A stretch of DNA of 64,000 bases from Bdellovibrionales bacterium (GTDB lineage Bacteria; Bdellovibrionota; Bdellovibrionia; Bdellovibrionales; JAUICD01). Below, piece by piece: positions 60,219 through 62,953 of this stretch (its first letter is position 1; every line of letters starts with the position of its first letter). Made by a program: the position numbers and the translations under genes. The DNA lies in assembly GCA_965203875.1 (NCBI GenBank), contig OZ241914.1, forward strand, positions 333,209 to 397,208, given 5' to 3'. A model generated the notes under the pieces. It ran no database searches. It was not told where the DNA came from and saw only the letters and a program-made list of their open reading frames with translations.

Positions 60219-61259
60219 TTAACAAGAAAAATTATTGCAGTAGTCAGAGAGTCTTTGTACTTCTTCATCTATCTTTTGTGAAATCAAATTACGAAGAGCA
60301 ATAGGGTCTACATCTCTAATATGCTTAGACATCGATTGAACCAGTTCCGTATTGTCTTCTGTAAAAGCAAATTGATCTAAGTCAATAAAATCCAAACCTT
60401 CATTAGCCATGTATTCACTATCACGTATTTCACCAGTCTCTTTATGAATAGCTATCTTTGCTGTGTTATTCTCTGCTATAATCATTTCGGAGTAACTTAA
60501 AATTTCATTTAAAGTTTCGATATCTTCATTTTCAGCATACCAATGGATCACTATCAACAGTGGTAAATTACCTACAAATTTGGGGGCACCTAGACATAAA
60601 AGCCGTTGCTTAACATGATCTAAATCAGTTCCAAAATTTTCAGTTACACAATCGGACAAGTACCCTACAATTCCAACTTGATCTTCAATTATGTCTTCTG
60701 ACGATACAAAATCATCTTCTGAAACTAAGGATGTAGGATGTTGTTCAAATAAATAACTTACTTTATCTTCTATCTCATCTAAAACTTCTTTTGTCTTGTC
60801 TGATGCAGGATTATTCTCTAAAACCATGATCTCTTGTGCTGCTGGTATGAGCGTATAATCATTTTGTAAAATCAAAATTGCAGGACGATAATTAAGTGAT
60901 GGAATTAAAATAGGTTTGTATATGAACAAGCTCTCACTATCATTTTGCAATAATGCTGGTGATAGATCTGGCGAATCTATACCGCTGTTAAATTTTAAAA
61001 GAGGCCCTCCAGAAGGCATCAATTTGTATATGTTGTTATGTACGTACATACTAGTAAAACTCTCATTCATGCGGTAGTTTGTAGTTTGTTCGTCAAATTC
61101 TACAAACCAATAGACAACATCACGATAAAAATCCTCTAAATGCAAAGGCAGCGATGTATCTTCAAAAAAATTAGAACGGTTACTTTTATCACTGGTAGTG
61201 ACTTGTCCATGTGAAACAGACAATACAAGAAACACCGACAGAAACAGAGCTTTTTTCAT
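60219..61259 (-). CDS. Secreted protein family C, member 1 (longest), unknown function
   Basis: Signal MKKALFLSVFLVLSVSHG. Shares the motifs VVYWFVEFDE and LSDCV..NFG....K..LLCLGAPKFVGNLPLLIVIHWYAENEDIETL with 61461 and 62249. GGAGG SD. Confidence 0.75.
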   Translation of the reverse strand: MKKALFLSVFLVLSVSHGQVTTSDKSNRSNFFEDTSLPLHLEDFYRDVVYWFVEFDEQTTNYRMNESFTSMYVHNNIYKLMPSGGPLLKFNSGIDSPDLSPALLQNDSESLFIYKPILIPSLNYRPAILILQNDYTLIPAAQEIMVLENNPASDKTKEVLDEIEDKVSYLFEQHPTSLVSEDDFVSSEDIIEDQVGIVGYLSDCVTENFGTDLDHVKQRLLCLGAPKFVGNLPLLIVIHWYAENEDIETLNEILSYSEMIIAENNTAKIAIHKETGEIRDSEYMANEGLDFIDLDQFAFTEDNTELVQSMSKHIRDVDPIALRNLISQKIDEEVQRLSDYCNNFSC

Positions 61260-61460
61260 CTATATCCTCCAACACTTACAGCAAGCTGTATATCACAGAT
61301 ATTATCCTTACACTAGAAGCAGCAGTTTAAAAGCTTGGGTGGTTATAAAATTTTTATAAAAGTAATGAATATTATATAATATCAGTTTTTGTAGTTGTTA
61401 TCTAAACATTGCCAATAGTATTTTTCTGTGCACGCATAGTGCGTAGGTAAAGGGGGTAAT

Positions 61461-62144
61461 ATGAAAAATATTAACAAAGTTTTTTTCTTGCCTTTGGTGT
61501 TTACGTTGTCTGTTTTTTGTAAGCAGGTGCTGGGACAGGATGCTTCTGTCCATCCAAAACATGATCTGTCAAGTGAGGACGGATTCACATCATATTCTGA
61601 TGACATTGTTAATTGGTTTGAAACATTCGACGAGAGTAGTGAACTGGAACTATCAGCACAATCGTCTGTGGTTACCGCAGCTTTATCAGACTGTGTGTCT
61701 ACAAATTTTGACGTTTTTGGCCCCCCTACCACTCTACCTCCCATTAAACAAAAACTTTTGTGTCTAAATGCTCCTATATTTATACGTAATTTGCCGCTTA
61801 TGATTGTGATAAACCATCTTGCGAACAAAGAAGATACAGCAAAGCTGAGAGATGTTTTTGGTTATACTGAGTTTCTTATTACTGTAGTAGGTGATAAACA
61901 TAAGCAAAAAATAGAGTCGCATCCTGAATACGGCAAACACTATATTAGTACGTTAGATGGTGGTGCATATCATGAGTCAAGAGTGGCTATTGAGCACAGA
62001 TTTGACATAGATCACGGAGGCTTTGCTGATTACAATATCTCTTTTGTTAATCAAATATCTACAGCTTATGATCAGAACAGATTAGACGATATAGTACTAC
62101 TAACTGAACAAGAGATAAGTAGGATTACACAATCTATCAGGTAA
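61461..62144 (+). CDS. Secreted protein family C, member 2
   Basis: Signal MKNINKVFFLPLVFTLSVFC; IVNWFETFDE; LSDCVSTNF...KQKLLCLNAPIFIRNLPLMIVINHLANKEDTAKL. AAGGGGG SD. Confidence 0.75.
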   Translation: MKNINKVFFLPLVFTLSVFCKQVLGQDASVHPKHDLSSEDGFTSYSDDIVNWFETFDESSELELSAQSSVVTAALSDCVSTNFDVFGPPTTLPPIKQKLLCLNAPIFIRNLPLMIVINHLANKEDTAKLRDVFGYTEFLITVVGDKHKQKIESHPEYGKHYISTLDGGAYHESRVAIEHRFDIDHGGFADYNISFVNQISTAYDQNRLDDIVLLTEQEISRITQSIR

Positions 62145-62248
62145 AAAAGTATCGTTGAACACAATCCTAAGTACTACTAGCTGAACAAGATAAATAAAAT
62201 GTATTCAGTTAGCATAAAAGGCAAAGATATAAGTATCTTAAGCCAAAG

Positions 62249-62953
62249 CTATCCTATGTGTTTTGTTGAGATGATTTGTGATATCAAAGATTTAAGACCA
62301 TCAAAATCTTCATCTTCAACATGTTCAGATATCAAATAGAGCAATATTTTATTATCAACTACAAATTTGCTAGTACCACCTTCCACTACCAAGCAACTCA
62401 CACTGGTACATGTATCGGTCAAAAATTTATTCTTAGTCTCAGCTTTATATCTATGCATCAGCAAATCATGAGAATAGTCCACAATCTTTCTTAGAGTTTG
62501 AATATCTTCATTTACAGCATACCAGTAAAGTACCATTAGAAGCGGTATATTGTCTGTAAATTCAGGAGCGTTCAAACACACAAGTTTGTTCTCAAAAAAA
62601 TTGGAATTCGCACCAAAAGAAACTACACATTGTGACAGCAGCTCTGTAATCCCTTTTCTAGAAATAGTCGGTGATGAACATGCCCTTTCGTTTGTATGGT
62701 AATCACCAAGTACCATTATGGGTCCACCAAAGGCCGCTTGCATATACTCATGGGTATCAACAAACATGCCCCTTCCATTTTGGCAAGAATCGCTGGAGTT
62801 GTTTTCGCCAAAGTTCACAAACCAATGGACAATATCTGCGTAAAACTCTTGGGCAGCGACAACACGGTCGTCTTGATCTGGCAAATGGTTTAAATCAGAC
62901 GCCTGACCATAAGAAACAGCTAATACAAAATACAAAGACACAATCTTTTCCAC
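62249..62953 (-). CDS. Secreted protein family C, member 3
   Basis: GTG start 4 nt after GGAGG. MEKIVSLYFVLAVSYG signal; IVHWFVNFGE; LSQCVVSFG...NKLVCLNAPEFTDNIPLLMVLYWYAVNEDIQTL. Confidence 0.75.
   Translation of the reverse strand: MEKIVSLYFVLAVSYGQASDLNHLPDQDDRVVAAQEFYADIVHWFVNFGENNSSDSCQNGRGMFVDTHEYMQAAFGGPIMVLGDYHTNERACSSPTISRKGITELLSQCVVSFGANSNFFENKLVCLNAPEFTDNIPLLMVLYWYAVNEDIQTLRKIVDYSHDLLMHRYKAETKNKFLTDTCTSVSCLVVEGGTSKFVVDNKILLYLISEHVEDEDFDGLKSLISQIISTKHIG

Follow-up and report, generated by a model that had tools for sequence, protein, structure and literature searches.

Three diverged paralogous genes with predicted export signals between ruvB and rplI of a Bdellovibrionales bacterium

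The 64-kb window analyzed here (64,000 nucleotides of a Bdellovibrionales bacterium, assembly GCA_965203875.1, contig OZ241914.1, positions 333,209 to 397,208 of the forward strand) carries, between ruvB and rplI, a cluster of three open reading frames (ORFs) that we designate pA, pB, and pC (Table 1; coordinates are those of the window). An original prediction, made from the letters of the window, described them as secreted paralogs of unknown function, and an ORF scan recovers all three as it gave them (346, 227, and 234 aa, on strands −, +, and −). A good Shine–Dalgarno (SD) site, also part of that description, precedes each start codon: GGAGGA at 61265–61270 (−) for pA, AGGGGG at 61451–61456 (+) for pB, and GGAGG at 62958–62962 (−) for pC, with an SD-to-start spacing of 4–5 nt in every case. 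The public annotation (P0006) has an identical 234-aa product for pC.

The three ORFs are homologous well beyond chance, with tblastn E values against the whole 1.6 Mb genome of 4e-17 (pA/pC), 7e-14 (pA/pB), and 3e-7 (pB/pC), and with pairwise identities in the alignment of 30–35% (33–35% to pA). The alignment reproduces the shared N-terminal and central blocks, with their two conserved Cys, that had been pointed out beforehand. The N-terminal block has the consensus [FS]Y.D[IV]V.WF..F[DG]E (DVVYWFVEFDE, DIVNWFETFDE, and DIVHWFVNFGE), the central block reads LS[DQ]CV...F...L[LV]CL.AP.F..N[LI]PL[LM][IM]V....A..ED...L and holds the two invariant Cys, and a third conserved block, F...N....[IM]S.......L..L..Q.I, lies in the final ~40 residues. 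Across the four full-length family members, the invariant positions are nearly all hydrophobic, Cys, Pro, or Asn, and the alignment contains no conserved His/Ser/Asp/Glu constellation. Variation is concentrated at two sites of this scaffold, namely after helix 1 of the structural model described below and in the hairpin region before the final two helices. The first of these (insertion site 1) is empty in pB and in the outside relative P0004, and holds ~45 aa in pC and ~130 aa in pA; the outer parts of the pA and pC inserts can be aligned with each other (M[YF]V..H.Y....GGP / IMVL). The acidic stretch reported for the pA insert is present, but the reported size of roughly 100 aa is not: the insert adds ~130 aa in comparison with pB and ~85 aa in comparison with pC.

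That these are real genes, as originally proposed, is supported by ORF length, codon preference, SD sites, and the pattern of substitution relative to P0004. The genome has 35% GC and a stop trinucleotide at 6.5% of its positions, so that the chance that 227 codons stay free of stops is ~3e-7. The in-frame mean log codon frequency of the paralogs (−3.87 to −3.95) is close to that of ruvB (−3.85) and rplI (−3.76), and scores in the other two frames are far lower (−4.7 to −5.1). GC (0.34–0.38) and GC at third codon positions (GC3; 0.26–0.33) fall inside the range of the genome (0.351 ± 0.03 and 0.269 ± 0.04, respectively), so that by composition the cluster is native rather than a recent import. 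Between pB and P0004, the ratio of nonsynonymous to synonymous substitution rates (dN/dS) is ~0.37, which indicates purifying yet relaxed constraint.

Each paralog begins with a predicted signal peptide, in keeping with the earlier claim: by inspection, the N-termini show the basic n-region, the h-region of 7–15 residues, and the small residues at −3/−1 of a Sec/signal peptidase I (SPase I) signal. The layouts of the n-, h-, and c-regions are MKK-ALFLSVFLVLSV-SHG/Q, MEK-IVSLYFVLAV-SYG/Q, and MKNINK-VFFLPLVFTLSVF-CKQVLG/Q, where the slash marks the predicted cleavage site; the n-regions contain Lys, a conserved Gln follows the predicted cleavage, and the maximum 10-residue hydropathy is 2.6–3.3. 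The hydrophobic cores are 10–13 residues long and therefore too short for a membrane anchor. In the two sequences from outside the species, the predicted signals end VFA/Q and VLG/Q. A lipobox-like IVSC is found in P0004 and a non-canonical SVFC at the same place in pB, and there is no Cys in the signal regions of pA and pC; on this pattern, the family might include both lipid-anchored and soluble members. The mature proteins are acidic (pI 4.2–5.7), and the full-length members all have even numbers of Cys (4, 2, 6, and 2), which would agree with disulfide-bonded exported proteins, of which an even count is the usual mark. The mature part of pC accounts for the six, and pA has an additional Cys pair at its C-terminus (DYCNNFSC). 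The longest hydrophobic stretch comprises 19 residues (LLCL.AP.F..NLPLLIVI) and is interrupted by Pro and Asn. A pore-forming helical toxin of the colicin or ClyA type was rejected as a candidate, there being no hydrophobic hairpin of ~40 residues and no such match in Foldseek.

An AlphaFold (AF2) model of pB, computed on a five-sequence alignment (A2), has a predicted local distance difference test score (pLDDT) of 67 and a predicted template-modelling score (pTM) of 0.69, and all five models agree (pLDDT 58–67); a single-sequence model of pC (pLDDT 38) was unusable. The model of pB is a seven-helix bundle (helices at residues 39–55, 70–84, 94–101, 111–122, 126–146, 190–204, and 208–226, many at pLDDT 80–95) together with a low-confidence beta hairpin region at 147–182. 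The link at 60–67, likewise of low confidence, is the site at which pA and pC carry their insertions. The two invariant Cys are placed compatibly with a staple between neighboring helices, and would form a disulfide there.

The original statement that no known domain can be recognized stands: Pfam gave sub-threshold matches only, and NCBIfam, PADLOC, and PHROGs gave none. Among PDB sequences, a search with pA alone found nothing at E <= 10, and a search with the family profile found nothing significant. The structural comparison that had been recommended, a Foldseek search with the AlphaFold model of pB, found no match in the PDB (best E 1.6, TM 0.19) or in BFVD (best E ~1), and no TM score exceeded 0.26. 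Neither profile nor structure searches thus place the proteins in a characterized family.

The distribution of the family is extremely narrow. A hidden Markov model (HMM) of the three proteins, run with filters off against six-frame ORFs of at least 60 aa, found no fourth copy in the genome itself; weak tblastn matches at 1.146, 1.354, and 1.443 Mb belong to a ClpX-like ATPase, an AAA ATPase, and a secretion ATPase or are out of frame, and were dismissed as chance. No member occurs in the same-genus genome G001, the RuvB of which is 82% identical, in 39 other relatives, or, by six-frame search, in 384 Bdellovibrionales genomes, where the residual matches (E 0.01–0.08, mostly in the signal-peptide region) are at chance level for that number of genomes. 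Two word-indexed searches of 5.8e9 proteins returned self matches only, and pattern scans of GTDB genome contigs and JGI metagenome contigs yielded no further members. An exhaustive HMMER search of 1.84e9 cluster representatives gave three matches: pA, P0003 (pC as it occurs in a second assembly of this species), and P0004. The last, a protein of 215 aa that is 54% identical to pB, is the sole relative outside the species; it is encoded at L095:306-953 on a 1,212-bp contig assembled from reads of run SRR17504026, where the initial 70 codons of another family member begin 48 nt 3′ of it on the same strand. The family is therefore present in at least two organisms, is tandemly duplicated in each, and is restricted to this species and one unassembled relative. 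Lineage specificity, as originally suggested, is upheld by this survey of distribution and copy number (three copies in this genome, one outside relative).

In the second assembly (L096; ENA ERZ25067941), which is one contig of 1.24 Mb, the genes run rplI-pC-pB-pA-ruvB, as in the window, and the paralog locus is 99.7–100% identical between the two. From position 56,500 of the window onward, the assemblies differ by five substitutions in 16 kb and by ~40 single-base gaps. In L096, pC is split into 148 + 90 aa. Because 1-nt gaps also break ruvB, ruvA, yebC, dnaB, ftsK, and efp in that assembly, we infer that the split is an assembly artefact rather than decay; as it is the only frameshifted copy, the original suggestion that frameshifted orthologs would betray decaying genes finds no instance here. 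pA is a 346-aa product in both assemblies. Three of the five substitutions lie in the paralogs and all three change amino acids (R279C and V317A in pA, G61E in pC), for which the binomial chance (at least three of five within 15% of the sequence) is ~0.03. This enrichment is suggestive, though weak, evidence of faster evolution; a strain-level dN/dS is not estimable from only three substitutions in three genes. To the left of the cluster, between 52500 and 56500, the two assemblies are ~10% divergent (29–86 mismatches per 500 bp; efp dS 0.32, dN/dS 0.04), with a sharp boundary at ~56,500 and near-identity beyond it for more than 16 kb, which suggests homologous-recombination import or a strain-mosaic assembly over the bamA/tamB end and efp. 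L096 also contains a dispersed element of ~340 bp (L096:1-342), which occurs at five or more sites of the genome at 92–99% identity (C1:1387194, 534099, 75057, 112842, and 325971), with shorter related pieces at 942 kb, 1,421 kb, and 416 kb.

The surroundings of the cluster are specific to this species. The view that it interrupts an otherwise core region is not borne out, since no relative examined has ruvB and rplI as neighbors; the distance between them is 126 kb (on a single contig) in G001, ~0.6 Mb in G002, and ~0.2 Mb in G004. Thus, the adjacency is species-specific, and the cluster sits at a synteny breakpoint, where two rearranged blocks meet. In G001, ruvB is followed (3′) by an ankyrin-repeat lipoprotein, a 1,209-aa ankyrin-repeat protein bearing a signal peptide, a gene resembling those for outer-membrane proteins, anmK, and xth, and rplI is preceded (5′) by pdxA, rpsF, and a membrane protein; in the genome of the window, these neighbors are found at 1.526 Mb, 0.477 Mb, and 0.465 Mb, with rpsF ~81 kb from rplI. 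The 1,209-aa protein (L093:4757-8386) is built of near-identical ankyrin modules of ~144 aa and adjoins the ankyrin lipoprotein (218 aa), and this pair lies where the species of the window has the three paralogs. The DNA 3′ of ruvB holds accessory, predicted exported proteins in both species. The best named relatives of RuvB are those of metagenome-assembled genomes (MAGs) of Bdellovibrionales and Pseudobdellovibrionaceae (62–66% identity).

Within the locus, pA and ruvB are convergent with 14 nt between their stop codons (60205–60218), a gap too small for a terminator hairpin, so that their transcripts would overlap or end within each other. pA and pB are divergent across a 201-bp spacer, pB and pC are convergent with 104 bp between them, and pC and rplI are divergent. 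A scan for promoters and terminators gave no more matches in the locus than expected from shuffled sequence, and the promoter-like hexamers listed in Table 1 are not evidence of promoters. No poly-G tracts of the kind associated with phase variation occur in the three upstream regions, and no Rfam matches or dispersed repeats occur in the locus. The spacer between pC and rplI contains no ORF; a terminator-like hairpin lies within it at 63261–63279. rplI is isolated behind this gene-free spacer, whereas in the congener it is preceded by rpsF and a membrane protein of 269 aa.

Table 1. Features of the ruvB–rplI interval, in coordinates of the 64-kb window.
Feature	Coordinates	Strand	Description	Basis
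ruvB	59218-60204	+	Left flank of the cluster	
pA	60219-61259	-	346 aa, ATG start, largest paralog; predicted signal peptide, N-terminal helix block, ~130-aa variable insert with acidic stretch, two-Cys helical core, C-terminal helices	ORF scan
pA central two-Cys block	60510-60659	-	L201-L250; C204, C222	
pA variable insertion site 1	60675-61088	-	Residues ~58-195, including the acidic run SEDDFVSSEDIIEDQ	
pA N-terminal conserved block	61089-61127	-	Y45-E57, FYRDVVYWFVEFDE; falls on the first helix modelled with confidence	
pA predicted signal peptide	61206-61259	-	MKKALFLSVFLVLSVSHG, then Q	Cleavage site inferred from the -3/-1 rule
Putative pA-pB divergent control region	61260-61460		Both SD sites; promoter-like hexamers in each direction	
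pB	61461-62144	+	227 aa, ATG start, minimal, insert-free paralog	ORF scan
pB predicted signal peptide	61461-61535	+	MKNINKVFFLPLVFTLSVFCKQVLG, then Q	Inferred
pB central two-Cys block	61683-61847	+	L75-L129; C78 in helix 70-84, C101 ending helix 94-101	
pC	62249-62953	-	234 aa, GTG start, ~45-aa insert at the insertion site of pA	ORF scan
pC central two-Cys block	62492-62638	-	L106-L154; C109, C125	
pC predicted signal peptide	62906-62953	-	MEKIVSLYFVLAVSYG, then Q	Inferred
pC-rplI spacer	62954-63385		432 bp; holds the SD site of pC	
rplI	63386-63862	+	Right flank of the cluster	

Markers elsewhere in the genome bear on how the proteins might be used. The genome has a type II secretion system (T2SS), judged by a GspD secretin (569 bits against a curated cut-off of 351), and neither VirB4 of the type IV secretion system (T4SS) nor the sheath protein VipB of the type VI secretion system (T6SS) was found in it. 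There are 67 Ank_2 matches in ~35 ORFs of the 1.6 Mb genome, several of them in tandem clusters (e.g., C1:1086416-1089911, 495581-497562, and 1109900-1110727), which is unusually dense for a member of the Bdellovibrionales. Ankyrin abundance in bacteria tracks host-associated lifestyles (PMC3932732), and Bdellovibrionota MAGs of 1.2–1.7 Mb and 32–35% GC are described as belonging to sponge symbionts (PMC9944714). By analogy, both are indirect pointers to host association.

We propose that the cluster represents a real, rapidly evolving orphan family whose members would be non-enzymatic binding proteins, exported by Sec and stapled by a disulfide, that probably serve contact with host or prey; to this proposal as a whole we give an even chance. 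Its parts differ in strength: the family is very probably real and exported, binding is moderately favored over catalysis, and a role in host or prey contact is a tentative suggestion. The preference for binding follows from the invariant positions, which lack a catalytic-type set, and from the all-helical model. In the scenario envisaged, the family would have arisen by local duplication, with one inversion, at the rearrangement junction, in an uncultured member of the Bdellovibrionales with a reduced 1.6 Mb genome. Sec would export each protein, with the signal peptide cut ahead of the conserved Gln, and the mature protein would fold into an acidic seven-helix bundle with a disulfide between the two invariant Cys. 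This conserved scaffold would present two variable sites, one after helix 1 (0, ~45, or ~130 aa) and one in the hairpin region before the last two helices, and the variable inserts would contact a component of host or prey by non-enzymatic binding, either in the periplasm or, following passage through the T2SS, at the cell surface or outside. A bolder version, which we consider rather unlikely, holds that these are T2SS-released host-binding factors of a eukaryote-associated lineage with a novel all-helical fold, and that diversifying selection acts on a hypervariable insert (0 to ~130 aa) carried by the disulfide-stapled bundle; if true, the family would give the genome a compact and adaptable means of recognition alongside its ankyrin-repeat arsenal.

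Several points weigh against the proposal of exported contact proteins. Sequence and the AlphaFold model are the whole basis of its functional part, and that model comes from only five sequences and has low confidence at residues 1–32, 60–67, and 147–182. The signal peptides were assigned by eye and by hydropathy, and are predicted only; a Sec signal by itself delivers a protein no farther than the periplasm, and any later secretion step is conjecture. The enrichment of substitutions amounts to three of five events in an assembly prone to errors. As the congener lacks the family, these genes are dispensable for the core biology of the genus. The case for association with eukaryotes is indirect and by analogy, and ankyrin proteins of Bdellovibrio can also be self-protection factors (Bd3460). 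Finally, a remote known relative may exist, the structure comparison having covered the PDB and BFVD.

Other explanations start from much of the same evidence. The paralogs might be self-protection or immunity-type proteins that stay in the periplasm and neutralize the bacterium's own exported hydrolases or toxins, much as small helical immunity proteins act elsewhere. In favor of this, the predicted Sec-type signal is the only targeting feature, there being no sorting tag and, in pA and pC, no lipobox; the proteins are small, acidic, helical in the model, and disulfide-compatible; immunity genes typically form arrays of diverged paralogs; and predators of the Bdellovibrio type need self-protection. 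Yet the cluster, flanked by ruvB and rplI, neither contains nor adjoins a gene for a toxin or hydrolase partner, and the congener, which presumably relies on the same enzymes for predation or symbiosis, lacks the family. Immunity proteins of T6SS and polymorphic toxins are accompanied by an adjacent toxin and a delivery system, whereas here there is neither VipB nor a VirB4-type T4SS, nor any match to an immunity family in PADLOC or Pfam, and we regard this role as distinctly unlikely. We are similarly doubtful that the proteins are lineage-specific structural or housekeeping components of the envelope (e.g., scaffolds or chaperones of the periplasm) that take no part in interactions with other cells. 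The export signal, the predicted helical bundle, and the lack of enzymatic motifs would all be compatible with such components, but housekeeping parts of the envelope are normally conserved within a genus, which these paralogs are not, and a set of three divergent genes that carry variable inserts and lie at a rearrangement junction looks more like accessory genes.

Much less probable is that the ORFs are non-functional, either decaying pseudogenes or chance ORFs briefly kept. The very narrow distribution, the split of pC in the second assembly, and a dN/dS of 0.37–0.6, indicating relaxed constraint, could be read in this way; however, three intact ORFs of 227–346 aa at 35% GC would each have to arise against the stop-codon odds given above, their in-frame codon bias resembles that of core genes, they have SD sites, their motif blocks are kept at 30% identity, an intact relative with dN/dS below 1 exists in another organism, and the pC split is one of the ~40 single-base gaps of that assembly. 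Recent horizontal acquisition from a phage, a plasmid, or a eukaryotic host is also very unlikely: absence from the congener and the synteny breakpoint would accord with it, but GC and GC3 are within the genome's own range, the locus has no integrase, transposase, tRNA, or dispersed repeat, and no PHROG or BFVD match and no donor-like homolog among the 1.84e9 representatives points to a source. That pA, or the family, is a diverged GT88-type glycosyltransferase effector (Legionella Lgt-like) is hardly credible. The suggestion comes from a sub-threshold local match of the C-terminal third of pA (residues 243–342) to positions 219–319 of Glyco_transf_88 (PF16849; E 7e-4), and the hints of host association in the genome would be in keeping with it. 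But at 19.1 bits the match is below the gathering cut-off of 27 and is made by one of five members only, and pA has no match at E <= 10 among PDB sequences, which presumably include entries for Lgt1. The acidic pair at the start of the aligned region (NED, KED, and NED in pA, pB, and pC) becomes KRD in P0004, so that there is no conserved DXD; the model makes a helix, not a beta strand, of the segment NLPLLIVI ahead of that pair; the proteins (195–330 aa) are too short for a 423-position model; and the moderate-confidence structure is all-helical, lacks the Rossmann-like sheet of a GT-A fold, and returns no glycosyltransferase in Foldseek.

As a family of exported binding proteins, the paralogs can be compared with several known groups. 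The nearest described parallel is provided by the families IchFam1-25 of Candidatus Ichthyocystis, an example of species-specific tandem families in reduced genomes of host-associated bacteria, which combine tandem duplication and diversification, occasional strand switches within an array, some arrays at rearrangement points, and ankyrin expansions (PMC4943182). The paralogs are likewise tandem, species- or genus-restricted, and without a known domain, and have a predicted export signal; both groups are lineage- or species-restricted tandem families of hypothetical exported or coiled-coil proteins, in genomes with ankyrin expansions. There is, however, no sequence relationship, the members number three here as opposed to tens to hundreds, and Sec (perhaps followed by the T2SS) in a member of the Bdellovibrionales stands against predicted type III or type IV secretion in a betaproteobacterium. 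The SAP proteins of phytoplasmas and the SDEs of Liberibacter, from wall-less or reduced bacteria of plants and insects, are small, Sec-dependent, lineage-specific, fast-evolving effector families that are often clustered, and, as in the paralogs, where it is predicted, a cleavable signal peptide is their only recognizable feature. Phytoplasmas have no outer membrane, and Sec export alone therefore releases their effectors, whereas the paralogs would additionally depend on the T2SS, vesicles, or lysis for release; there is no homology, and a target in a host cell is not implied. The Borrelia surface lipoprotein CspZ/CRASP-2 (PDB 7zjj and 9f21) is an exported, all-helical protein of ~220 aa from a host-associated bacterium, properties that are predicted here, and it gave the best match of the family profile to PDB sequences. 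This match was rejected as evidence of kinship: it is not significant (E 0.059 and 0.69) and covers only ~50 residues, against the C-terminal two helices, CspZ is not among the 34 listed Foldseek matches, pA and pC have no lipobox, and binding of complement factors is not indicated.

The family itself appears to be undescribed, although families of this kind are familiar and common in reduced genomes, and alone it opens no long-standing question. Its practical value is modest, consisting of three small, soluble-looking targets for structure determination and, once the organism's partner is known, for pull-down, and of a marker by which the lineage could be traced in metagenomes. Species-specific secreted families are the usual seat of host or prey specificity, as well as a source of new protein folds. 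If our reading is right, the three paralogs would be among the accessory proteins exported by a little-known branch of the Bdellovibrionales that has a halved genome and many ankyrin-repeat genes.

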